Below are positions 24,997 to 52,909 of a stretch of DNA of 64,000 nucleotides, one piece after another (the first letter of the stretch is position 1; each line of letters begins with the position of its first letter). Below the pieces are notes generated by a model, which worked only from the letters and a program-made list of their open reading frames with translations, was not told the DNA's origin and searched no databases. Source of the stretch: a virus; IMG/VR virus record IMGVR_UViG_3300043313_001352, positions 1 to 64,000 of that record. The stretch is one strand, 5' to 3'. The position numbers were made by a program, and so were the translations under genes.

Positions 24997-25601
24997 CAGT
25001 CGGAGGGGGTGGGGGTCGGGGTGAAGTGGAACAGCCAGTCCTGCTGGGTCGGGGTGTAGGAGGTGATCGAGAGCAGCCCGGAGGCGGATTGGTAGTCACC
25101 TGTTCCTCCGGTGATGGTGAAGGACAGGTCCGCGTCCGGGGGCTCCGCGAGCGCGTCGTTCTCGATCATCGCGCCCGCGAAGGTGATCTGGCCGCGCGGC
25201 GTGAGCGCCGTGCCCGTGCAGATGGTGCGGATGGCCTTGTCCGCGACCGCGGTGCAGTGCAGCGCCGCCTGGCCGGTCGGGGTCAGGCCGCGGGGAGTGT
25301 CGTTGGTCGTCTTCGAGTCGGGGTAGGGGCGGGGGAGTGGTTCGCCCGGCTCGGCGTGGAACAGGTTGGCGGTCAACACGATGTCCTGGGCACGGGCGGG
25401 AAGGGGTGGCTGGGGCGGGATCAGGGCGCGGACCTGGAGGTCGTCGAGGTCGGTCGGGTTGGTGTCGGCGGCCGGGGTGGAGGGGTCGTTGGAGGACGGG
25501 GGCCGGACCAGCAGCACGATCAGGATCACCACGGCGGTGGCGGAGAGGGTGATCAGCAGGGCCAGCAGCAGGGTCCGAGGCGTGATCCGGGTGTGCGACA
25601 T
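24996..25601 (-). CDS. Membrane-anchored protein with dirigent/allene-oxide-cyclase-like barrel
   Basis: N-terminal TM; FTITGGTGDYQSASG motif. Confidence 0.55.
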   Translation of the reverse strand: MSHTRITPRTLLLALLITLSATAVVILIVLLVRPPSSNDPSTPAADTNPTDLDDLQVRALIPPQPPLPARAQDIVLTANLFHAEPGEPLPRPYPDSKTTNDTPRGLTPTGQAALHCTAVADKAIRTICTGTALTPRGQITFAGAMIENDALAEPPDADLSFTITGGTGDYQSASGLLSITSYTPTQQDWLFHFTPTPTPSD

Positions 25602-25849
25602 GGCTCAGTCTCGCATGGAGTGGGGAAGAGTGAGAGTCCAACCGGGGGGATTTGGTGGGGGGCGGGGAGGGGGTGGCGGGGGAAGCGGGGATTGGCGAGA
25701 TCGAGTTCGCCAAGGCGGGGGAGGCGGTGCGAGGGGTGGGAGCTGAAAGTGTGCCTCCTCAGGAACCCCTCAGGATCGTGTTCCGACCTGCGTCAGGGGC
25801 CGCACCCGCTCGCACCGGGCACGACCCCGGCGACGCGTCCCGAGCGTGT

Positions 25850-26220
25850 GTCTCAGCCTCTCAGACGCGCTGCAGCGTGCCTAGGGCGCGCTGGGAGCCT
25901 CGCAGGCGCGCTGGGAGCCTCGCAGGGAGCACTGGGCACGTGCTGAGCACACGAGCGCGTGCACGACGAGCACAGGCACGAGCATGCCGATGCGCTGCAG
26001 CACTGAGCACGAGCATGCCTGTGCTGAGAGAGGCAGAGGCAGAGGCAGGCAAGCACAGGCAGGCACAGGCAGGGAGCAGGTGAGTGCACAGGCCAGCCTC
26101 AGGGAGGGAGCCCTGCCTCGTCAGGCAGGGATAAGGGAGAGGCTGGCCTGTGCTTCCCCTGGTCCTGTGTACCCCTGCCCTGCCTGTTCAGACACTGGGC
26201 TAGCACGATTGGTCAGTGTT
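25850..26220. repeat. Non-coding low-complexity and nested inverted-repeat segment
   Basis: 20-bp tandem repeat 25885-25924; GAGCAC/GGCA reiterations; 15-bp IR 26086-26100/26139-26153. Confidence 0.75.
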
Positions 26221-26227
26221 TGGACGA

Positions 26228-26276
26228 TGGTGTAGGCTGTTCCTAGGAACAGCCCACCACGACGTAAGGACCCACC
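26228..26276 (+). promoter_or_regulatory. First promoter of the array (no upstream box)
   Basis: TGGTG-TAGGCT, palindrome GGCTGTTCCTAGGAACAGCC, CACGACGTAAGGAC. Confidence 0.7.
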
Positions 26277-34606: not shown

Positions 34607-35458
34607 ATGACCGCCAAGTCCGACGCCCGCGAGGCCCGCCTCGAAGCCATGCACGAGGTGCTGGTTGCCAAGACGGCCGAACTCGCCACGAGCGAGGGCT
34701 GGATGCAGTACTTGGAGTTCGCCTCCAAGTTCCGCCAGTACAGCCTCAACAACACGCTGCTGATCCTCTGCCAGCGCCCCGACGCGACGCACGTCGCCTC
34801 GTACAAGAAGTGGGGCGAGATGGGGCGTCAGGTCCGCAAGGGCGAGCGCTCCATGTCGATCTTCGCTCCGATGATGCGCAAGCGCGAGGACGAGAAGACC
34901 GGCGAGGAGAAGCGCTACATCTCCGGCTTCCGGCTGGTCCCGGTCTTCGACGTCGCGCAGACCGACGGCGACCCGATCCCCGAGCCCGTGCTCCCCGTGC
35001 TGCTCGACGGCGAGGCCCCCGAGGGTCTGTGGGATTCGCTGCTGACGATCGTGGACGCCTCCGGCTACCACGTCGAGCGCGGCGACTGCCACGGGGCGAA
35101 CGGGTTCACCCGCCCGAGCGAGCGGCTGATCATGGTCCGCGAGGACGTGAGCGACGCGCAGGCCGTCAAGACGCTGGTGCACGAGGTCGCGCACATGCTG
35201 CTGCACTGTGGCGAGGAGGGCGGGCTCACCGCCGATGCGATGCTGCACCGCTCAGTCGCTGAGGTCGAGGCCGAGTCGGTCGCGCACATCGTCGCCAACG
35301 TGCACGGGCTGCCGACCGAGACCTACTCGCTGCCCTACATCGCGGGCTGGTCCAACGGCAAGCCCGAGCAGGTCGCAGCGACTGCGGACCGCGTGCTCAA
35401 GACCGCGAAGCAGATCCTCGCGATCACCGAGCCCGCTGAGGAGGAGGTCGCGGCCTGA
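34607..35458 (+). CDS. ArdC-like protein (ssDNA-binding N-domain plus zincin-like domain)
   Basis: FRQYSLNNTLLI..QRPDATHVASYKKW..MGRQVRKGE...VFDVAQTDG; TLVHEVAH...EVEAESVA. Confidence 0.9.
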   Translation: MTAKSDAREARLEAMHEVLVAKTAELATSEGWMQYLEFASKFRQYSLNNTLLILCQRPDATHVASYKKWGEMGRQVRKGERSMSIFAPMMRKREDEKTGEEKRYISGFRLVPVFDVAQTDGDPIPEPVLPVLLDGEAPEGLWDSLLTIVDASGYHVERGDCHGANGFTRPSERLIMVREDVSDAQAVKTLVHEVAHMLLHCGEEGGLTADAMLHRSVAEVEAESVAHIVANVHGLPTETYSLPYIAGWSNGKPEQVAATADRVLKTAKQILAITEPAEEEVAA

Positions 35459-39647: not shown

Positions 39648-39744
39648 GCCTGTCGAGAGGATGGACCTAGCCCGGCTTCCGCTGCAGTCCCCCCACTGCC
39701 GGAAGCCGGGTCTAGGCTGTCCCCAAGCGACGAAGGGACGAACG

Positions 39745-39948
39745 ATGTACGTGCACCGGGACAAGCGAGGCGGGGTCACCCTGACCCCCGACGAGGCAGA
39801 GATCACCGACCTGTTCTTGCTGTTCGTCCTCGAAGGCGAGGACATTCCGGAGGCCGCGCAGTACGCCCTCTCGGCGACTCCGAACCCGGACCCCAAGTTC
39901 GCTGCCTGGCTGCGCCAGGGGATGCTCAGCCACGAGCGAGCTGACTGA
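39745..39948 (+). CDS. Small hypothetical protein
   Basis: GACGAAGGGAC leader; stop overlaps next box. Confidence 0.6.
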   Translation: MYVHRDKRGGVTLTPDEAEITDLFLLFVLEGEDIPEAAQYALSATPNPDPKFAAWLRQGMLSHERAD

Positions 39949-40040
39949 CGTTTACGCAGCCCAGGCGCACCGCACGAAGCGCAGGCTGTCCACGTCCTGT
40001 GGTAAACTGTCCTTAGACAGAACGACGAAAGGACACCCGC
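39944..40040 (+). promoter_or_regulatory. Module 15
   Basis: Box ends 39959; TAAACT at 40003. Confidence 0.8.
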
Positions 40041-40620: not shown

Positions 40621-40793
40621 GAGAGTTCTTCCTTCGGGTTGTCTTCCGTCGCTGGGCCAGTTGCTAGACCCCAGACAACCGGCTGTGCCGAATACGACCA
40701 GGGTCTAGGGTCGTGATCCTTGTGCGGATCCTGTTCGGTACTGCTGAGTGTACCGCAGTCCACGTCTCGTTCCGCCAAACAGGCCCAGAAGCT

Positions 40794-40875
40794 ACTGACG
40801 TTTATGCAGACAGGGCTGTACCCGCAACCACGCGGGGCAATCATGCGGGCTGTGGCAGGCTCAGCGTGCTGAGCC
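40794..40875 (+). promoter_or_regulatory. Module 16 (non-consensus -10)
   Basis: Box ends 40809; TGTGG-CAGGCT with GGCTCAGC-gt-GCTGAGCC. Confidence 0.6.
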
Positions 40876-41024
40876 GGGACACACCTACTGAGCAGGGCAA
40901 ACGCCGCACGACGTTGTGTCGGTGGGGTGCCCTAGGGTCAGGACCGTTAGCCAACCTCAGTGCTGACCACACATCTAGACCAGCAGCAGACCACCCGCCC
41001 CGCGATTATGGGGTGACGCAATCC

Positions 41025-41078
41025 TGTGGTAGGCTCTGGGTACAGAGCCAGACAGTGAACGACGAAAGGACGCATGAC
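41025..41078 (+). promoter_or_regulatory. Promoter and leader of AAA gene
   Basis: TGTGG-TAGGCT, GGCTCTG-ggta-CAGAGCC, AACGACGAAAGGAC. Confidence 0.75.
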
Positions 41079-42416
41079 GTGAGTACCAAGAGCACCGCCG
41101 TGATGATGCAACTCGCCACGGCCGATGGGGATTCCAAGCAGCAGATGGTGGTCTTCGCCAACAAGGCGGTCTACCGCCGCAGCCTGACCGAGGGCACCCG
41201 CACCCGCTGGCGCTACGCCAGCGTGGGCGACCTGCCGACGTGGGTCGAGGGCTACGTGAACCTCACGCAGGCCGCGCCCACCCCGATGAGCATCAGCCAC
41301 GGCGCCACCCTGATGGAGGTCACCGAGGACGAGGCAACCGAGGCCGAGGGCGGCGCGTTCCCGAGGAACGTGGGGCTGCGCTACTCCCGCGTGATCGACG
41401 CGATGGACGCGGACCCGACCAGCAACGTCCCGACACCGGACGTGAAGCAGTACGTGCAGGACTGGCTGGACGCGCAGGGCCGCGACGACAACGCGTGGAT
41501 CGACACGCACGTGCACTCCGCAGGCACGTGCGTGATCAAGCCCGCCGCACCTGAGCCTGAGCCGGAGGAAGAGCCGGAGGTCACCGTGGCCACCACGACG
41601 GGCGGCTGGACCTACCCCGAGACCAAGGGCGGCTACATCACCCGCCCGAACGGGACCAAGTACAAGGTCCGCACGCTGGACGGCACGCCCGACGTGCAGG
41701 TGATCCGCGAGGCTCGCCCCGACCGCGAGCACGTGTTCCTCTACGGCGAGCCGGGGACCGGCAAGACGGCACTGGTCGACTCCGCATTCGGCACCGATCT
41801 GGTGACCATGCTGGGCACCGAGGACACCGAGGTCGCGGACTTCATCGGCGGCTACACCGTGCGCGGTGGCGGCTCCTACGGCTGGACGGACGGCGCGCTC
41901 ACCGAAGCCATGGAGCGCAAGGTCCCGCTGTTCATCGACGAGATTGGGGTGATCGCTCCCAAGGTGCTCACCACCGTGTTCTCGGTGATGGACGGCCGCG
42001 ACGAGATTCGGATCACCGCGAACCCCGACCGGGGCATCGTGACCGCTGGGCACGGCTTCTTCGTGCTGGCAGCCACGAACCCGCACGCTCCCGGCGTGCG
42101 GCTCTCCGAGGCGCTGCTCTCCCGGTTCGCGATCCACCTTGAGGTCGGCAGCGACTACTCCGTGTGCCGCGAGATGGGGGTGCCGGACGTGCTGGTCACC
42201 GCCGCCGAGAACTTGGACAAGCGCCGCGCCACCGGCGAGATTGGCTGGGCACCGCAGATGCGTGAACTGCTCCGCGCCAAGGCGCAGTGGACCAAGCGCG
42301 GCGACGCGTTCGCGATCCGCAACCTGATCAGCGGCGCACCCGAGGACGACCGCGAGGTCGTGGCCGAGGTCATGGCCCGCACCACCGGGAAGAAGTTGAC
42401 CGGGCTGGTCCTCTGA
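41079..42416 (+). CDS. MoxR-type AAA+ ATPase (CbbQ/NirQ/NorQ-like)
   Basis: GEPGTGKT, LFIDEIG, AATNP, LSEALLSRF, MRELL; GTG start after leader. Confidence 0.9.
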   Translation: MSTKSTAVMMQLATADGDSKQQMVVFANKAVYRRSLTEGTRTRWRYASVGDLPTWVEGYVNLTQAAPTPMSISHGATLMEVTEDEATEAEGGAFPRNVGLRYSRVIDAMDADPTSNVPTPDVKQYVQDWLDAQGRDDNAWIDTHVHSAGTCVIKPAAPEPEPEEEPEVTVATTTGGWTYPETKGGYITRPNGTKYKVRTLDGTPDVQVIREARPDREHVFLYGEPGTGKTALVDSAFGTDLVTMLGTEDTEVADFIGGYTVRGGGSYGWTDGALTEAMERKVPLFIDEIGVIAPKVLTTVFSVMDGRDEIRITANPDRGIVTAGHGFFVLAATNPHAPGVRLSEALLSRFAIHLEVGSDYSVCREMGVPDVLVTAAENLDKRRATGEIGWAPQMRELLRAKAQWTKRGDAFAIRNLISGAPEDDREVVAEVMARTTGKKLTGLVL

Positions 42417-45187: not shown

Positions 45188-45235
45188 CCGCATCAACCGG
45201 CCGCCGCCTGGCGGCCGGTTTCGGCAGTGACGTCT

Positions 45236-45346
45236 ACTGACGTTTACGCAGCCTGGCGGCTACCTGGTGGGCTGGCCTGGTTTGCCTGCTGATCTAGATG
45301 GTGTAGACTGTTCTCAACAGCCCAACGACGACAAGGACACACTGAC
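45236..45346 (+). promoter_or_regulatory. Module 18
   Basis: Box ends 45251; TAGACT at 45304; CTGTT-ctc-AACAG. Confidence 0.8.
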
Positions 45347-46805: not shown

Positions 46806-47405
46806 ATGGACGGCATCCGGGACGGCTTCGGCGACGACCCCACCGTGGACGAGGTGCTCGCCGAGGAGGAGGAGTTCCTCGTCCGCAACGCCCGCAACGC
46901 GCTGGTCAAGAAACTGGGCCGGGGCTTCCCCGCCGGAGCCGATGAGGACGCTGTCCAGGAGGCCCGCATTGCGGCCTGGCAGTCCTGGGAGAAGAACCAC
47001 AACCGGGCCTACCTGAACATCGCCGCCCGGCAGCGGCTGATGCAGCACGTCTACCGCGACCAGTGGTTCGGCACCAAGCCGACGGCGCACGAGAAGGACC
47101 CGATCCGCCGGGCCAACCGGGACAGCTTCGATGACCCGGACAACGGCATTGACGTTCTGGTCAACTCGGCGACCTGGGTCGACCAGGTGCTGCTCGCCTA
47201 TCACCACGGCGAGATCCACCAGGCGCTGGACGCACTGACGTTTACGCAGCGCGAGTACGTGGTGCTGCGCTTCTGGGGCGGGATGTCGGACACCGAGATC
47301 GCTGCGCACCAGGGGAAGACACGGGGCGGAGTGTCTTCGGTGTGGCACAAGACCATCCGCCCGGCGCTCGCCTCTCAGTTGGAGTTGTTGAGCGACCTGT
47401 GCTAA
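46806..47405 (+). CDS. Sigma-70 family (ECF-like) sigma factor
   Basis: Region 2 EDAVQEARIAAW...AYLNIAAR; region 4 ALDALTFTQREYVVLRFWGGMSDTEIAAHQGKTRGGV. Confidence 0.85.
   Translation: MDGIRDGFGDDPTVDEVLAEEEEFLVRNARNALVKKLGRGFPAGADEDAVQEARIAAWQSWEKNHNRAYLNIAARQRLMQHVYRDQWFGTKPTAHEKDPIRRANRDSFDDPDNGIDVLVNSATWVDQVLLAYHHGEIHQALDALTFTQREYVVLRFWGGMSDTEIAAHQGKTRGGVSSVWHKTIRPALASQLELLSDLC
47233..47249 (+). promoter_or_regulatory. Perfect box inside sigma CDS
   Basis: CACTGACGTTTACGCAG, encodes LTFTQ. Confidence 0.85.
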
Positions 47406-47446
47406 ACTGTTCCTAGGAACAGACCAACGACGAAGGACGAACTGAC
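47398..47446 (+). promoter_or_regulatory. Promoter and leader
   Basis: TGTGC-TAAACT, CTGTTCCTAGGAACAG, AACGACGAAGGAC. Confidence 0.75.
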
Positions 47447-47932
47447 ATGACTGATCTCCCCACCGGCTACCGCTGGGCCACCGCCGAAGAGACCGAGGCG
47501 CACGCCGTCACGGAGAACCCGATGATGGTCGTGGTGCCCCGCACCGTGGACTCCTCGGGTACGCCGTACACCGAGGGCGAGGCTGACCTCGCGCTGCCCA
47601 TCGACCTGCCCCGTGACGAGGACGGTTTCATCGAGACCTCCGCCGTGCACGGCGAGATGTGGATGGTGCACATCCAGTGGACCGAGGACCACGACGGCCG
47701 CGTGATCGACCCGGAGCACGAGGAGTACCCGGAGACCTTCCACGGACCGTTCTTCAGCCAGCAGGAGGCTGCTGACTGGTCCAACGCCTACCCGGAGTTC
47801 ACCGAGATCCACGACATGTACGTCAAGAACCTCAACCTGGTACGGCCCACCGGGCTGCCGACGATCACCGCGAAGACCGTGGCGTACGCCGACGGCATGT
47901 CCGCCGCCCGTGCCGACCTGGGGCTCCGATGA
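47447..47932 (+). CDS. Acidic hypothetical protein
   Basis: Leader upstream. Confidence 0.7.
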   Translation: MTDLPTGYRWATAEETEAHAVTENPMMVVVPRTVDSSGTPYTEGEADLALPIDLPRDEDGFIETSAVHGEMWMVHIQWTEDHDGRVIDPEHEEYPETFHGPFFSQQEAADWSNAYPEFTEIHDMYVKNLNLVRPTGLPTITAKTVAYADGMSAARADLGLR

Positions 47933-48336
47933 GCACGCTGCCTGCCCTGGTCAAGGACGTCTCCGGCCAGTACTACGGCGGAGCGTTCTGGAACAGCGCC
48001 GACTACCGCGTCAAGATCGTGGCGCTCGACGGCACCGGGAAGAACTTCCGGATGACCGTGGAGACCGCCAGCGGCAGTGAGGTCGGCGAGTACGAGTTCG
48101 GCATGGCCGAGGTCGAGGGCATCGCCCGGATGGCCTCCACCGACCACGGGCTCGGCGCCTACCAGGACGACTGGACCATCCCGTTCGGGATGGGCCGGGT
48201 GCTGACCTGGGACCTGCCCACCATCGAGCACCACCTGGTCACCGTGGACGAGGACGTCGTCGAGGAGATCGCCGCGTGGCTGGAGTACGCCACCGGCGAG
48301 AAGGTCTGGGATGGCGGAGAGGACTGGGAGTACTGA
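47929..48336 (+). CDS. Hypothetical protein
   Basis: Coupled. Confidence 0.65.
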   Translation: MSTLPALVKDVSGQYYGGAFWNSADYRVKIVALDGTGKNFRMTVETASGSEVGEYEFGMAEVEGIARMASTDHGLGAYQDDWTIPFGMGRVLTWDLPTIEHHLVTVDEDVVEEIAAWLEYATGEKVWDGGEDWEY

Positions 48337-48569
48337 TGAGCACCTTCATCCGCAGCGCCGAGCACATCATGGCTTCAGTTGCTGACGCCATCGACGCCAT
48401 CGACGACGGCGACATCGACATCCACACGATCAGCCTGGTGCTCAACGGCCAGCACGGGGAGTTCGACCTCCGCATCGAGGCCACCGACGACGACATGGAA
48501 GACCGGCTGTGGACCGGCATCGCACACCGCGGTGGCGGCATCACCGATCTCGGGGAGGTGCTGGACTGA
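48336..48569 (+). CDS. Small acidic protein
   Basis: Coupled. Confidence 0.6.
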   Translation: MSTFIRSAEHIMASVADAIDAIDDGDIDIHTISLVLNGQHGEFDLRIEATDDDMEDRLWTGIAHRGGGITDLGEVLD

Positions 48570-48766
48570 TGGTGCTGCCACTGACGGTCACCGTGGTCGC
48601 CTGCCTGGCCATCATCGTGATGACCAGGCCGACGTTGCAACGCGACGTCGATGGCGTTGTTCAGCCACGCACCGTGGTCGTGCTCGCGAAGCTCTCGATG
48701 CTGGCCGCCATCATCGTCGGCGGCTGGTCGATCTTCGTGCTGATCGCCATCCAACTCACACCCTGA
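48569..48766 (+). CDS. Small two-TM protein
   Basis: Coupled, hydrophobic. Confidence 0.55.
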   Translation: MVLPLTVTVVACLAIIVMTRPTLQRDVDGVVQPRTVVVLAKLSMLAAIIVGGWSIFVLIAIQLTP

Positions 48767-48779
48767 CTGACAACAACCC

Positions 48780-48827
48780 TGTGGTACTCTGTTACCACGC
48801 AACGACGCAACGACAAGGAGAACTGAC
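48780..48827 (+). promoter_or_regulatory. Promoter and leader
   Basis: TGTGG-TACTCT, CAACGACGCAACGACAAGGAG. Confidence 0.65.
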
Positions 48828-49697
48828 ATGGCACGTGTGACCCACGTCCGCAAGGCGCAGCAGCGCTACGAGACCGTCCCCGTCATCGACGAGGCCACCG
48901 GGGAGCCCAAGCGCACCCAGGTGATGAAGAACGGCGAGCCCAAGATGACCCGCGCGAAGGCCGGTCGCCCCGCCCGCCCGGTCTTCATGACCGTCACGGT
49001 GCAGGACAAGACCAAGCCGCTGCCGCCGTACACCTGCGACTCGTGCCACCAGCCCATCGAGGTCGGCACGCCGTACAAGCACATCACCCCGAAGAGCGGT
49101 CCGTACGGCGGGCACAAGCGCACTCGGCACGAGTCCTGCCCGACCTGGCAGGTCTGGGAGTACAGCAACTCCTGGAGCGCTCGGATCGCCCAGGCCACGC
49201 ACGACTTCGACGTCAGCAACGCCGAGTCCACCGATGACGTTCAGAGCGCTCTCGACGACGTGGCGGCTGCCATCAAGGAGCTGGCCGAGGAGTCCCGTGA
49301 GACCGCTGGCAACATCGAGGACGGCTTCGGTCACCCGACGTCGCAGTCGGAGGAGGCCGAGCAGCGTGCCGACGACCTGGACGGCTGGGCCGACGAGATC
49401 AGCGGTGCCGACATCCCGGACCTCCCGGAGCCCGAGCCGCGGTGGTTCGTCACCAACGGCGACGGTGTCGCCTCGGACCTGTTCGAGGAGGACGGCTACG
49501 ACTCGGAGATGGACGCCGAGCAGGCGCTCGCCTCTCACCGTGACGACAACGACGAGGAGCCTGGCGAGGACGGCGAGTTCGACGACGGGTTCGAGATCGA
49601 GGAGATCACCCCGGACGAGCCCACCGAGGAGCAGCTGAACGACTGGCGTGACGAAGTCCTGGACGCTTGCTCGATCGTCGACGAGAGCCCCGTCTGA
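48828..49697 (+). CDS. Phage protein with basic Zn-ribbon N-half and very acidic C-half
   Basis: CDSCHQPIEVGTPY...RHESC; D/E-rich C-terminus. Confidence 0.75.
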   Translation: MARVTHVRKAQQRYETVPVIDEATGEPKRTQVMKNGEPKMTRAKAGRPARPVFMTVTVQDKTKPLPPYTCDSCHQPIEVGTPYKHITPKSGPYGGHKRTRHESCPTWQVWEYSNSWSARIAQATHDFDVSNAESTDDVQSALDDVAAAIKELAEESRETAGNIEDGFGHPTSQSEEAEQRADDLDGWADEISGADIPDLPEPEPRWFVTNGDGVASDLFEEDGYDSEMDAEQALASHRDDNDEEPGEDGEFDDGFEIEEITPDEPTEEQLNDWRDEVLDACSIVDESPV

Positions 49698-49999
49698 TGG
49701 CCGCCGAGGAACTGACGACCTACCAGGTCGAGGTGCTCGTCGAGGTGAAGATGGCCGGTGACGAGAACGCCGCGTACACCGCGGTCGACGAGATCATGCA
49801 GCGTGCCTGGGACACCGATGACGGTCGCAAGTGGGTGCAGCCCAAGTGGCACTTCGAGATGCTGGAGGGCTGCGTCGGTCTGGCCGATGCGCTCCGAGAT
49901 GTCGTCGGCGATGCGTGTGAGTCGCACGCTGAGTTCGAGCCCGGCTGCTCCACCTGCGTGGCACTGAGCCTGCTCGCCACCCGTGAGGTGACGTCATGA
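49697..49999 (+). CDS. Hypothetical protein
   Basis: Coupled. Confidence 0.6.
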   Translation: MAAEELTTYQVEVLVEVKMAGDENAAYTAVDEIMQRAWDTDDGRKWVQPKWHFEMLEGCVGLADALRDVVGDACESHAEFEPGCSTCVALSLLATREVTS

Positions 50000-50349
50000 G
50001 GCAACTGGACCTCACCGTCTTCGAGCCCGGCGACACCGTCGGCACCCTGTCCCAGGACGGCCGGGTCTCACTGTGGACGGTCTCCCCTGAAGGCGGGCTG
50101 ACCCGTGCCGACAACCGGCTGTTCGGAAACGCCACTGGGTTCGACCTGGACACCCCCATCGAGCAGCTCAACCTCCAGGTGCGCACCTTCAACCTGCTCA
50201 AGCGCGAAGACGTCAACACGGTCGGCGACCTGCTGACGTTTACGCACGAGAAGGGCGACGAGGAGATGCTCGCGATCCGCAACATGAGCCAGAAGAACGT
50301 CGACGAGATCAGGAACTGGGCCACCAGGCTGAGGAGCGAACGACCGTGA
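49996..50349 (+). CDS. RNA polymerase alpha-CTD-like protein
   Basis: PIEQLNLQVRTFNLLKREDVNTVGDL...EEMLAIRNMSQKNVDEI parallels RpoA CTD PIE.L.L.VR..N.LKRE...TVG.L...LL.IRN.G.K...E. Confidence 0.85.
   Translation: MRQLDLTVFEPGDTVGTLSQDGRVSLWTVSPEGGLTRADNRLFGNATGFDLDTPIEQLNLQVRTFNLLKREDVNTVGDLLTFTHEKGDEEMLAIRNMSQKNVDEIRNWATRLRSERP
50233..50247 (+). promoter_or_regulatory. Box inside alpha-CTD CDS
   Basis: CTGACGTTTACGCAC, encodes LTFTH. Confidence 0.75.
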
Positions 50350-50567
50350 GCGACGAGAAGCAGCTGCCGCCGGGAGAGAAGCGGTTCATCGCCAAGCCGC
50401 GGACCCAGGGCAAGCACACCACCTGGAACGTCTATGACCGGCAGCGGGCGAGCTTGCCAGCGAGCTTGCCAGGCTTCGGTGTGGTCGCCTCCGGGTTCAC
50501 TGACGAAACCGAGTGCCAGGCTGAAGCTGACCGTCTCGCCGCGTTCGTCGAAGGAGCCACCCAGTGA
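50346..50567 (+). CDS. Small hypothetical protein
   Basis: GTGA coupling. Confidence 0.6.
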   Translation: MSDEKQLPPGEKRFIAKPRTQGKHTTWNVYDRQRASLPASLPGFGVVASGFTDETECQAEADRLAAFVEGATQ

Positions 50568-50872
50568 GCATGCTGCTGAAGACCGCCCTGGTGCTGTACA
50601 TGCTCGCCACCGCAGCGACCGGTGCGTTGTCGGCCTTCGCCATCGCGGTCGACGCCTGGCCGTTGGCGATCGCCATCATCGCGGTCTGGATGTTCGGCTG
50701 GAGCCCGCTGGTGATCGTGGGCTACGCCGAGCTGGAGCGGCGCCTCGACGCAGAAGCTGGAGCTGGCCCGCCTGCGCAAACGTCAGTGGGACGTCATCGG
50801 GCCGACGGCCCAGCTGACCCAGCTGGCGACCAGGTGGAGCGGTTCCATCTCCTTGAGGAGCTGGCCTCGTGA
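50564..50872 (+). CDS. Membrane protein
   Basis: Two TM segments. Confidence 0.55.
   Translation: MSMLLKTALVLYMLATAATGALSAFAIAVDAWPLAIAIIAVWMFGWSPLVIVGYAELERRLDAEAGAGPPAQTSVGRHRADGPADPAGDQVERFHLLEELAS
50772..50788 (-). promoter_or_regulatory. Inverted box variant
   Basis: Reverse complement CACTGACGTTTGCGCAG (1 mismatch). Confidence 0.65.
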
Positions 50873-51192
50873 GCCCGATGCACGGCGCCGACGGTCAGGA
50901 CCCGTCGGTCCCGCCGAACAGCCGGACCGATGATCAAGAGCTGCTCGACACCAAGCACCGTCGGTTGGCCCTGGTCGGTGTCCTGGAGCTGGTGCAACGT
51001 CAACACACCGACGCGGTCGACCTGGTCACCGTCGTCGACATCCTGGGCTTGAGCGATCAGCTCGACGAGCTGGCTGGAGCTGGGCGGTCAGCTCGACGAG
51101 CTGGGGAACGTCATCGACGTTTGGCCGCAGCTCGCCAGGCAGCTGGCCTGGCGGAGGCCCAGCTCGACGGGACCGTCGGGCGGGTGGAATAA
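50869..51192 (+). CDS. Hypothetical protein
   Basis: GAGGAG RBS, coupled. Confidence 0.5.
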   Translation: MSPMHGADGQDPSVPPNSRTDDQELLDTKHRRLALVGVLELVQRQHTDAVDLVTVVDILGLSDQLDELAGAGRSARRAGERHRRLAAARQAAGLAEAQLDGTVGRVE

Positions 51193-51210: not shown

Positions 51211-51331
51211 TGTAGCTAGCACCGTTGCGCCAGCTGAAGCTACCCGTCGGTCGACATCCCGTGGACCGGTCGGTTAGAGTAGTACAAATCAACCATCAAC
51301 ATGAACCATCAACGACATGAAGGACAGCACC

Positions 51332-51865
51332 ATGACCCGATTCATCACCGTGCACGTCGGCTGCGACTGGCCGACCTGCGAGACCGTCGCCCCTGAAGGC
51401 GAAGGCATCGTCATCGAGAAGGTGCTGTCCATCGACGGCAAGCAGGGACGGTCGTTCCTGCTCTGCAAGAAGCACGTCGACGAGTTCGAGTCGGTCGTGC
51501 TGCCGTTGATGCAGGCCGGGGTCAAGGTCGAGCAGCCCAGCTCCAGCTCGCGGTCGCGGTCGAAGTCGGCCGGAACGTCATCGACGTCCGGCAGCTCAAG
51601 CCCAGCTGCGCCGCTGAAGGCCGACGAGGATGGCACCCATCCGTCGCTGGTCTGCAAGGTCGACGGCTGTGAGCGTCACGGTCGCCCGCTGTCCAACCGG
51701 ACCGGGATGGCCCAGCACGCCATCCGTAGCCACGGCTACGCCGATCTCGCCGCCTACGAGGCGGAGTTCGGGCCGGTCGCCACCGTCCCGCGCAAGAACA
51801 CCAAGAACACCTCACCGTCGGTCGAGGGCACGGTTGCCCCGGTCGACGAACCATCCATCAGCTGA
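51332..51865 (+). CDS. Lsr2-like dimerisation domain fused to C2H2-type zinc finger
   Basis: ITVHVGCD...VLSIDGK...LCKKHVDEF..VVLPLMQAGVKV; CKVDGC...LSNRTGMAQHAIRSH. Confidence 0.6.
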   Translation: MTRFITVHVGCDWPTCETVAPEGEGIVIEKVLSIDGKQGRSFLLCKKHVDEFESVVLPLMQAGVKVEQPSSSSRSRSKSAGTSSTSGSSSPAAPLKADEDGTHPSLVCKVDGCERHGRPLSNRTGMAQHAIRSHGYADLAAYEAEFGPVATVPRKNTKNTSPSVEGTVAPVDEPSIS

Positions 51866-51883
51866 AGGTCCCAGGAGGCCACC

Positions 51884-52636
51884 ATGAGTACCCCGACGCA
51901 CTACGAGCGAGCTGCCGCGGTCGCGGATGAGCTGCTGGCTGCGCACGAGCGTGGTGAGTCGGTCTCCGCGATGGCCGAGGAGCACGGTCTCCGTCGCGAG
52001 GCGATCGCCAGCGAGCTGGCCAAGCACGGCATCGGTGAGCCGTCGCCCGCACGGGAGGCGGTCCTGGAGTACGTCCGGGCCAACCCCGGTCTGTCGGTCG
52101 ACGACCTCTCGCTGCGCCTGGACCTGAGCAAGTCATCGGTCTCCCGGTACCTGCGCGGGACGCCGGAGCATCGGTTGGTGGTCAGCCGCAAGGTCTCGCC
52201 GACGCAGCGGTTCACTGATCAGCAGATGGCGGATGCTCTCAAGGCTGCGTTCCGGCAGCTCGACGATCGGTCGAAGGGCCTGTCCCGGAAGCGGTACCGC
52301 GAGATCATGGAGGGCCAGGACGTGCCCGCGGCGGCCACCTACATCCGTCGCTACGGGACCTGGTCGGAGGCGTGTCGGTTGGCCGGGGTCACCGCGGCGA
52401 AGGCCCGGCGGACCAACTACGTCCAGGACTGGAGCAACGACCAGATCGTCGACGCGGTCGCCGAGTTCGTGAACACCACCGGTCAGCTCAGCTACCACGC
52501 TTACGCAGCGTGGGCGCGCGAGCACGACAAGCCGTCGGGTCCCCTCCTCGTCCAGAGGCTCGGCGGTTGGGCCAAGGCGAAGACCCTGGCCATGTCCCAG
52601 TTCGAGACCGACGACCGGACGGTTGCGGTCGCCTAG
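51884..52636 (+). CDS. Multi-HTH protein with two homing-endonuclease-associated repeats
   Basis: NPGLSVDDLSLRLDLSKSSVSRYL; PAAATYIRRYGTWSEACRLAG; PSGPLLVQRLGGWAKAK. Confidence 0.75.
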   Translation: MSTPTHYERAAAVADELLAAHERGESVSAMAEEHGLRREAIASELAKHGIGEPSPAREAVLEYVRANPGLSVDDLSLRLDLSKSSVSRYLRGTPEHRLVVSRKVSPTQRFTDQQMADALKAAFRQLDDRSKGLSRKRYREIMEGQDVPAAATYIRRYGTWSEACRLAGVTAAKARRTNYVQDWSNDQIVDAVAEFVNTTGQLSYHAYAAWAREHDKPSGPLLVQRLGGWAKAKTLAMSQFETDDRTVAVA

Positions 52637-52887: not shown

Positions 52888-52909
52888 AACGTCACTGACG
52901 TTTATGCAG
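52888..52909 (+). promoter_or_regulatory. Last box copy, no downstream promoter or gene seen
   Basis: AACGTCACTGACGTTTATGCAG. Confidence 0.75.

Follow-up and report, generated by a model that had tools for sequence, protein, structure and literature searches.

A short DNA word, called the box in the following, is written in frame into two transcription genes of a phage-like genome, the viral record IMGVR_UViG_3300043313_001352 of IMG/VR. The record is a single 114,034-bp contig with a GC content of 67% that looks like a tailed phage; the window analysed here is its first 64 kb. The box is repeated along a 26-kb early block, almost always in the direction of transcription, and its two intragenic plus-strand copies lie in the genes for a sigma factor and for a protein that resembles the C-terminal domain (CTD) of the RNA polymerase alpha subunit. 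In 10 distinct sigma DNAs and three distinct alpha-CTD DNAs the codons of the box are invariant. This strongly supports the view, taken in a first-pass annotation of the stretch, that the intragenic copies are functional sites which purifying selection maintains at the DNA level, and that the peptide did not produce them by accident.

The sigma gene (46806-47405, plus strand; 199 amino acids) was provisionally assigned to the sigma-70 family, ECF-like (extracytoplasmic function), by Pfam, PHROG and PDB profile comparisons. Its open reading frame (ORF) scores 24.2 bits with Sigma70_r4 (cut-off 24.1), 25.1 with r4_2 (cut-off 25.7) and 18 with r2 (cut-off 24), and matches PHROG 1740 'RNA polymerase sigma factor' at 1.2e-8; a profile built from its homologues matches region 4 of the ECF factors SigL, SigF and SigE in PDB at 8e-6 and weaker. 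The gene is the last one of an operon that starts with a box and a promoter at 45235-45309. At the start of region 4, in codons 143-148 (A-LTFTQ), it carries the perfect 17-mer that had been annotated: CACTGACGTTTACGCAG at 47233-47249 on the plus strand, matching in 17 of 17 positions and read in frame as GCA CTG ACG TTT ACG CAG. The peptide is indeed atypical, since LTFTQR aligns to LPERER and LSAEHR of other factors, at a position where L-P-x-x-x-R is usual. Among 41 sigma homologues, whose identity falls from 94% to 31%, LTFTQ is shared by the close homologues (74-94%) and by another group at 40-45%; intermediate and more distant lineages have SPTQ, TPDQ, TDDQ, TERQ or P-x-x-x-R instead. 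These relatives come from soil metagenomes and from contigs, a plasmid and a metagenome-assembled genome of Streptomyces, Micromonospora and Nocardioides.

The synonymous sites of the box were then compared, leaving out the box-less sigma lineages P0008-P0019 and the alpha-CTD homologues P0043-P0060. All 10 distinct sigma DNAs (44-95% amino acid identity) read CTG ACG TTT ACG CAG. The flanking codons drift (GCG/GCC; CGC/AGG/AAG/GCT; CTG/CTC), and 41 of the 63 invariant-residue columns of the alignment use at least two codons. Outside the box a single codon is kept in 4 of 33 invariant-residue columns with four- or six-fold degeneracy, and the other two invariant phenylalanine columns have TTC in all 10 sequences. 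TTT had been noted as apparently rare, and the count bears this out: it makes up 6 of the 473 phenylalanine codons of the genome (1.3%). ACG accounts for 27% of the threonine, GCA for 7.4% of the alanine, GAA for 8% of the glutamate and CTA for 0.9% of the leucine codons, and the chance that this codon usage spells ALTFTQ as the box is about 4e-5. Even the A at position 2 of the box is kept, by GCA or GAA in the sigma genes and by CTA in two alpha-CTD genes. Free synonymous variation, which the annotation had named as the outcome that would refute its reading, was not seen and, therefore, the constraint is on the DNA.

The alpha-CTD-like gene (49996-50349, plus strand) encodes a stand-alone protein of 117 amino acids, identified by PF03118, by alignment to PDB entries and by a structure model. 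It matches RNA_pol_A_CTD with an E value of 2.5e-15 (56.4 bits; cut-off 23.8) and aligns to residues 249-298 of the alpha subunit of a bacterial RNA polymerase. In the model the confidence score pLDDT (predicted local distance difference test) is 88-95 across the domain, and the 50 N-terminal amino acids form only a three-stranded beta unit. The N-terminal dimerisation and assembly domain of alpha is lacking, which rules out a role as an ordinary polymerase subunit. Judged by eye, the alignment shows Arg, Asn and Lys residues that correspond to the DNA-binding ones. Our literature search found no description of a stand-alone alpha-CTD-like phage protein.

The box of this gene lies at 50231-50247 (plus strand) in codons 79-84 (L-LTFTH). 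The annotated 14-bp match at 50233-50246 is exact, with the reading CTG CTG ACG TTT ACG CAC; the 17-mer as a whole has three mismatches, which gives 14 of 14 positions in the core and 14 of 17 overall. All three distinct DNAs read CTG ACG TTT ACG CAC, two of them preceded by CTA: these two relatives read TACTGACGTTTACGCAC by use of this rare codon and match in 15 of 17 positions. Here, too, the peptide is unusual, as the annotation had it. LTFT aligns to VART of the bacterial alpha CTD and adjoins a 4-residue insertion; LTFTH is fixed in homologues of at least 70% identity, more distant ones have a different sequence there, and box-less homologues show DYYH, EFYH and NFWD.

A search of the genome with CACTGACGTTTACGCAG at up to three mismatches gave 23 matches, 22 on the plus and one on the minus strand, versus 0.11 expected from shuffled sequences, and none in the 114 kb outside 26.6-52.9 kb. 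The plus-strand array, (c/t)ACTGACGTTTACGCAG, extends from 26624 to 52909. Copies pooled from three genomes, 53 in total, define a near-invariant 16-mer, ACTGACGTTTACGCAG, with a left flank of two classes, which may mark two sub-classes of the site. One class, GAACGTCA, completes the box to a perfect palindrome, AACGTC-ACT-GACGTT; the other is GAGCTA. By our own gene calls genes take up about 80% of the 26-kb block, but 20 of the 23 copies lie outside coding sequence; the coding copies are, hence, exceptions and not background. There are three of them. The copies at 47233-47249 and 50231-50247 are, as annotated, the only plus-strand ones that lie fully inside genes; a minus-strand copy at 50772-50788 has to be added. 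Of about 50 genes, only two can be recognised as belonging to the transcription machinery, and the two plus-strand copies fall into just these, a coincidence that gene length would produce with a chance of about 1e-3 (a post-hoc estimate). All three reading frames of the box are used somewhere: in the copy at 39943-39959 the TGA (39946-39948) is the stop codon of the gene 39661-39948, and LTFT(Q/H) is encoded in the sigma and alpha-CTD genes.

The only minus-strand box of the window (50772-50788) lies inside the plus-strand gene 50564-50872, and at its single mismatch what would be an in-frame TAA reads CAA. One minus-strand box is present in each of the three genomes, about 0.3-0.75 kb from the alpha-CTD box (in the relatives at G001 50871-50883 and L125 13335-13351); the genes and frames differ. 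A further plus-strand copy at 52893-52909 is an orphan that stands after the last plus-strand gene with no promoter downstream. Judging by this terminal copy and by the minus-strand copies, which are not orthologous, the box would also have a role for which no promoter is required. The idea of a roughly regular spacing found no support: the spacings range from 562 to 2998 bp with a coefficient of variation of 0.50 and vary with the length of the transcription units. Without the sigma and alpha-CTD copies, a box-free stretch of 5.96 kb would result.

The intergenic copies have a defined relation to promoters. A typical unit consists of a terminator-like hairpin, the box, a spacer of 40-74 nt, an extended -10 element, a covarying hairpin, a leader and one or more genes. 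The promoter element, GAC-n-GTGTGGTA-n-GCT, is an extended -10 without a -35; the conserved leader is ACGACG(A/T)AAGGAC, followed by the start codon; the spacer is GC-rich and unconserved, and spacers cannot be aligned to one another. The distances from box to -10 fall into four classes of 40 and 43, 52 and 53, 61-64, and 72 and 74 nt, with a vector strength of 0.82 at a period of 10.25-10.5, a value reached by 3e-5 of uniform draws. The classes recur in two relatives, and all 30 intergenic distances measured in the three genomes are 39-74 nt. Two units of the window could be paired with units of the close relative G001, a 177-kb viral record, by the sequence next to the -10; their distances are 74 versus 62 and 61 versus 39 nt, and the shifts of 12 and 22 nt equal about one and two helical turns. 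The box centres would lie near -61, -73, -83 and -94 if transcription starts 7 nt after the -10, an assumption that leaves an uncertainty of about 2 bp in the absolute positions. The box-less promoters (26228, 51251-51280 and at the 3' end of the sigma gene) have -35-like hexamers, whereas the box-linked ones do not. Helical phasing is a property of duplex DNA, so the box is most readily understood as a double-stranded site for a protein that communicates with the polymerase at the promoter.

The unit before the AAA ATPase gene (40793-41079) is exceptional. Its box is 46-47 nt, and thus off phase, from a variant -10, TGTGGCAGGCT, and an off-phase box at 46-47 nt is also found in units of G001 and L125 with the matching variant -10. 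In the window this unit has a second full promoter at 41027.

How could one site serve both settings? We give about an even chance to a model, deduced from the sequence, in which the box is a duplex-DNA site for one regulator that would act like an activator upstream of promoters and as a polar obstacle inside the sigma and alpha-CTD genes. According to this model, a single sequence-specific and orientation-sensitive regulator of the phage early region, either phage-encoded or a host factor, would read the box. In about 18 intergenic units it would bind on one face of the helix upstream of the extended -10 that has no -35, in the manner of a class I activator. The copies in the sigma and alpha-CTD-like genes belong to the same family of sites; they occupy stretches where the two proteins tolerate substitutions, and purifying selection keeps them at the DNA level. 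No -10 element is found 40-74 nt after the sigma box or the alpha-CTD box, and no promoter for about 1 kb downstream of the latter; with no promoter at a working distance, the bound factor is most likely a polar obstacle or attenuator. It would hinder RNA polymerase coming from the operon promoter, as at L5-type stoperators, and the output of full-length sigma factor and alpha-CTD-like protein would be tied to the level of the reader, as a feedback or for timing. The reading of the annotation is thus supported in part: the roadblock or feedback on the two genes that it had proposed is something we infer by analogy, and it agrees with the lack of a suitably placed promoter after either copy, with the terminal orphan box and with the minus-strand copies. 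A -10-like GATGCT 18 nt after the alpha-CTD box, in class II geometry, was not counted as a promoter because it is fixed by a Met codon.

Two candidates for the reader are encoded in the last rightward operon (51332-52636, plus strand), behind a canonical -35/-10 promoter at 51251-51280. The first gene (51332-51865) encodes a zinc-finger protein (C-x4-C...H-x4-H) whose N-terminal domain weakly matches the Lsr2 dimerisation fold (4e1p, rank 12, E 1.3). The second (51884-52636) encodes a protein with several helix-turn-helix (HTH) motifs: a strong winged HTH at residues 55-102, a weak second HTH at residues 19-43 and an HNH-associated repeat; comparison with PDB sequences gave weak ArsR/SmtB-type matches (E 0.2). 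Their position and domain content would suit a box reader. It is also conceivable, though unlikely, that the sigma factor and the alpha-CTD-like protein themselves help to read the box, each gene carrying its own operator in an autoregulatory loop, or that the roadblocks are relieved by titration of the reader. For example, the alpha-CTD-like protein might bind to the GTTTAC at the centre of the box or form the link between the box reader and the polymerase; alternatively, replicating genomes might titrate the reader, and the 23 boxes would then be a copy-number timer for the switch to sigma-directed late transcription.

Several points weigh against a single regulator with two roles. The codon test on the alpha-CTD gene rests on three distinct DNAs. 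Phasing upstream of promoters speaks for an activator, a kind of protein that is seldom a strong roadblock; the dual role of activating and blocking is borrowed, by analogy, from L5 gp71 and phi29 p4. Both candidate readers were picked by location and domain content only. It is uncommon for a transcription-factor site to vary as little as these 53 copies do, which may be a sign of concerted evolution. Finally, the sigma box could serve a promoter 153 nt downstream instead.

This promoter is a second overprint on the sigma gene. It covers the last ten codons (47379-47408, plus strand; TTGGAG, 18 nt, TG-n-TAAACT), the TAA of its -10 is the sigma stop codon, and it drives 47447-48766. Its TTGGAG is kept by the rare TTG (5.8% of leucine codons) at Leu192 and Leu194 in 9 of 10 homologues. 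If the sigma copy were the displaced box of this promoter, it would activate from about -174 and not regulate sigma; with an intergenic gap of only 41 nt and a constrained region 4.2 leaving no space nearer to the promoter, it would have moved to the first tolerant spot in the coding sequence. In favour of such a displacement, a promoter of the same family overlaps the sigma stop codon in 10 of 10 homologues, down to 44% identity, at a constant distance from the box, and what lies between the two encodes the conserved HTH of region 4. The box ends 153 nt upstream of the -10. This distance fits the phasing for helical repeats of 10.0-10.3 (0.2 bp off at 10.1), but misses it by 4 bp at 10.5, and it is far beyond the 39-74 nt of the 30 intergenic distances. 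Moreover, the promoter has its own -35-like TTGGAG, as box-less promoters do, and the alpha-CTD copy, with no promoter for about 1 kb, and the minus-strand copies are left unexplained. We consider displacement improbable. Less credence still is due to the idea that the box is a crossover point for the exchange of modules, or is kept uniform by gene conversion from some 20 copies, in which case the intragenic copies would mark junctions of domain swaps and not regulatory sites. One sigma factor, P0020, is a clean recombinant: its 147 N-terminal amino acids share 97% identity with P0023 and 38% with P0007, and its 51 C-terminal ones share 94% with P0007 and 41% with P0023. The crossover point falls within 13 residues, ALNALTFTQREYV, that include the box, at the boundary between the region 2 side and region 4. 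In addition, several blocks of homology between the window and its relative start 1-13 nt before a box, with cassettes reshuffled at 26-31 kb, and together with the P0020 crossover this shows that boxes serve as junctions; the near-invariance of the 53 copies fits as well. On the other hand, a stretch of 17 identical bases with unrelated sequence on either side is short for homologous recombination, and the P0020 crossover may just mark the longest DNA stretch common to both lineages. Evolvability does not explain strict purifying selection across lineages of 44% identity, and recombination accounts for neither the helical phasing nor the depletion of boxes from coding DNA.

An action of the box in the transcript, as a hairpin, in processing or cleavage, or in termination or antitermination, such that the intragenic copies destabilise or truncate the sigma and alpha-CTD messenger RNAs, appears very unlikely to us. 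It would fit that 22 of 23 copies are on the sense strand, that a strong terminator-like hairpin precedes most boxes, and that copies with the left flank GGAACGT can form a hairpin of 7 bp with a 3-nt loop (-6.6 kcal/mol). But this hairpin is no better than in shuffled sequences (z -1.5), over half of the copies, the two intragenic ones among them, lack its left arm, and folding around the two intragenic copies equals that of shuffles (z +0.11 and -0.66). Phasing to the -10 belongs to duplex DNA, a minus-strand copy is kept in each of the three genomes, and scans of the region with Rfam and for tRNAs were empty. We hardly believe that LTFT is required by both proteins, with codons that are a frozen accident, or that chance is at work. 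True, both copies are in the same reading frame and the peptide is conserved among closer homologues; since one of the three frames has a TGA, however, the chance of the same frame is one in two, and the position is hypervariable in box-less homologues. Above all, there is no synonymous change at five codons in 10 sequences, a codon of 1.3% usage included, whereas the flanks drift, and this all but rules the reading out.

Two other explanations of the box were tried and rejected. It is not one element of a two-element sigma promoter, since the sequence at 16-18 nt to either side of it shows no conservation. An N4-like hairpin promoter for a virion polymerase was considered with regard to an ORF of 4116 amino acids, which turned out to be a collagen-like tail fibre. 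This ORF lies outside the window (genome 82384-94773, minus strand; L167 384-12734) and has collagen repeats and matches to tail-fibre PHROGs. None of the large ORFs was recognised as a phage RNA polymerase.

Besides the tail fibre, the contig encodes an ArdC-like protein, an AAA ATPase and many small orphan genes. Among the box-driven genes of the 26-kb early block are one with an ArdC-N-like antirestriction domain and a metallopeptidase-like motif (34607-35458) and the one for the AAA_5 (MoxR-like) ATPase (41079-42416). The first rightward promoter is preceded by a non-coding divergent region of 650 nt (25600-26230), rich in short GC-rich repeats: gcgctgggagcctcgcag occurs twice, together with runs of cagaggcag and caggcag. 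A search of the phage collection with blastn and tblastn found no relative. When viral contigs were scanned for the exact motif, there was, besides the 177-kb relative, one match per contig, as by chance, and the viral and bacterial contigs with distant sigma relatives (L149-L164) have no comparable repeated box.

What is unusual here is that a regulatory word of 16-17 nt is overprinted on two proteins of the transcription apparatus with every synonymous site held, down to 44% identity, and that a second overprint, the promoter over the sigma stop codon with its rare TTG codons, adjoins it. Both transcription genes are probably under the factor that reads the box, which would link the early-promoter regulon of the phage to genes that reprogramme the host polymerase. 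The case is a compact natural example of dual coding and brings a stand-alone alpha-CTD-like phage protein forward. The architecture of a phased box and an extended -10 could serve as a modular promoter system for high-GC hosts.

Oriented arrays of a single operator in actinobacterial phages are known, and so are regulatory sites inside genes. The closest parallel to the array are the stoperators of cluster A mycobacteriophages (L5 gp71; the TipsytheTRex repressor), where the site is asymmetric, the repressor monomeric and a halt of elongation has been proposed for one orientation only (PMC9283540). Those phages have more than 20 copies of one asymmetric site, mostly in short intergenic gaps and oriented along transcription (PMC9283540). 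The array described here is similar in that 22 copies are on the plus and one on the minus strand, all plus-strand genes are co-directional and 20 of 23 copies are non-coding; co-orientation with transcription, the position just after the end of a unit and the orphan copies also recall stoperators. In contrast, the box has 16-17 bp and not 13 bp, its sequence differs, the sites are within one 26-kb early block, and the helical phasing 40-74 nt upstream of promoters is not a property of stoperators. In a comparison with PDB sequences that was limited to the HTH candidate 51884-52636, no homologue of the cluster A repressor, which consists of an HTH and a stoperator domain, was recognised.

As for the phasing, class I activation works via the CTD of polymerase alpha, and class I sites include those of CAP in Escherichia coli at -61.5, -71.5, -82.5 and -92.5, the asymmetric marboxes of MarA and SoxS, and the site of phi29 p4 at -82; p4 both activates and represses. 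The box resembles them in being asymmetric, in its fixed orientation, in centres one helical turn apart at nearly the same positions and in promoters without a -35. It differs in that the phage encodes an alpha-CTD-like protein and has copies of the site inside coding sequence; the activator is, in this case, putative. The order of the units recalls PeSL (promoter-stem-loop) elements, the mobile regulatory cassettes of T4-type phages. Common to both are an array of units of about 1 kb with small early genes, flanked by the same promoter and stem-loop, and evidence of exchange at conserved elements; the extra phased upstream box, the high-GC phage of actinobacterial type and the element copies inside genes set the present case apart. 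At the protein level, the alpha-CTD-like protein shares the domain (PF03118) with the bacterial alpha CTD, but has 117 amino acids and no N-terminal assembly domain, and the sigma factor has segments that resemble regions 2 and 4 of ECF-type factors, but scores at or below the Pfam cut-offs. Both phage genes differ from their bacterial counterparts in that they carry a regulatory DNA site in frame.

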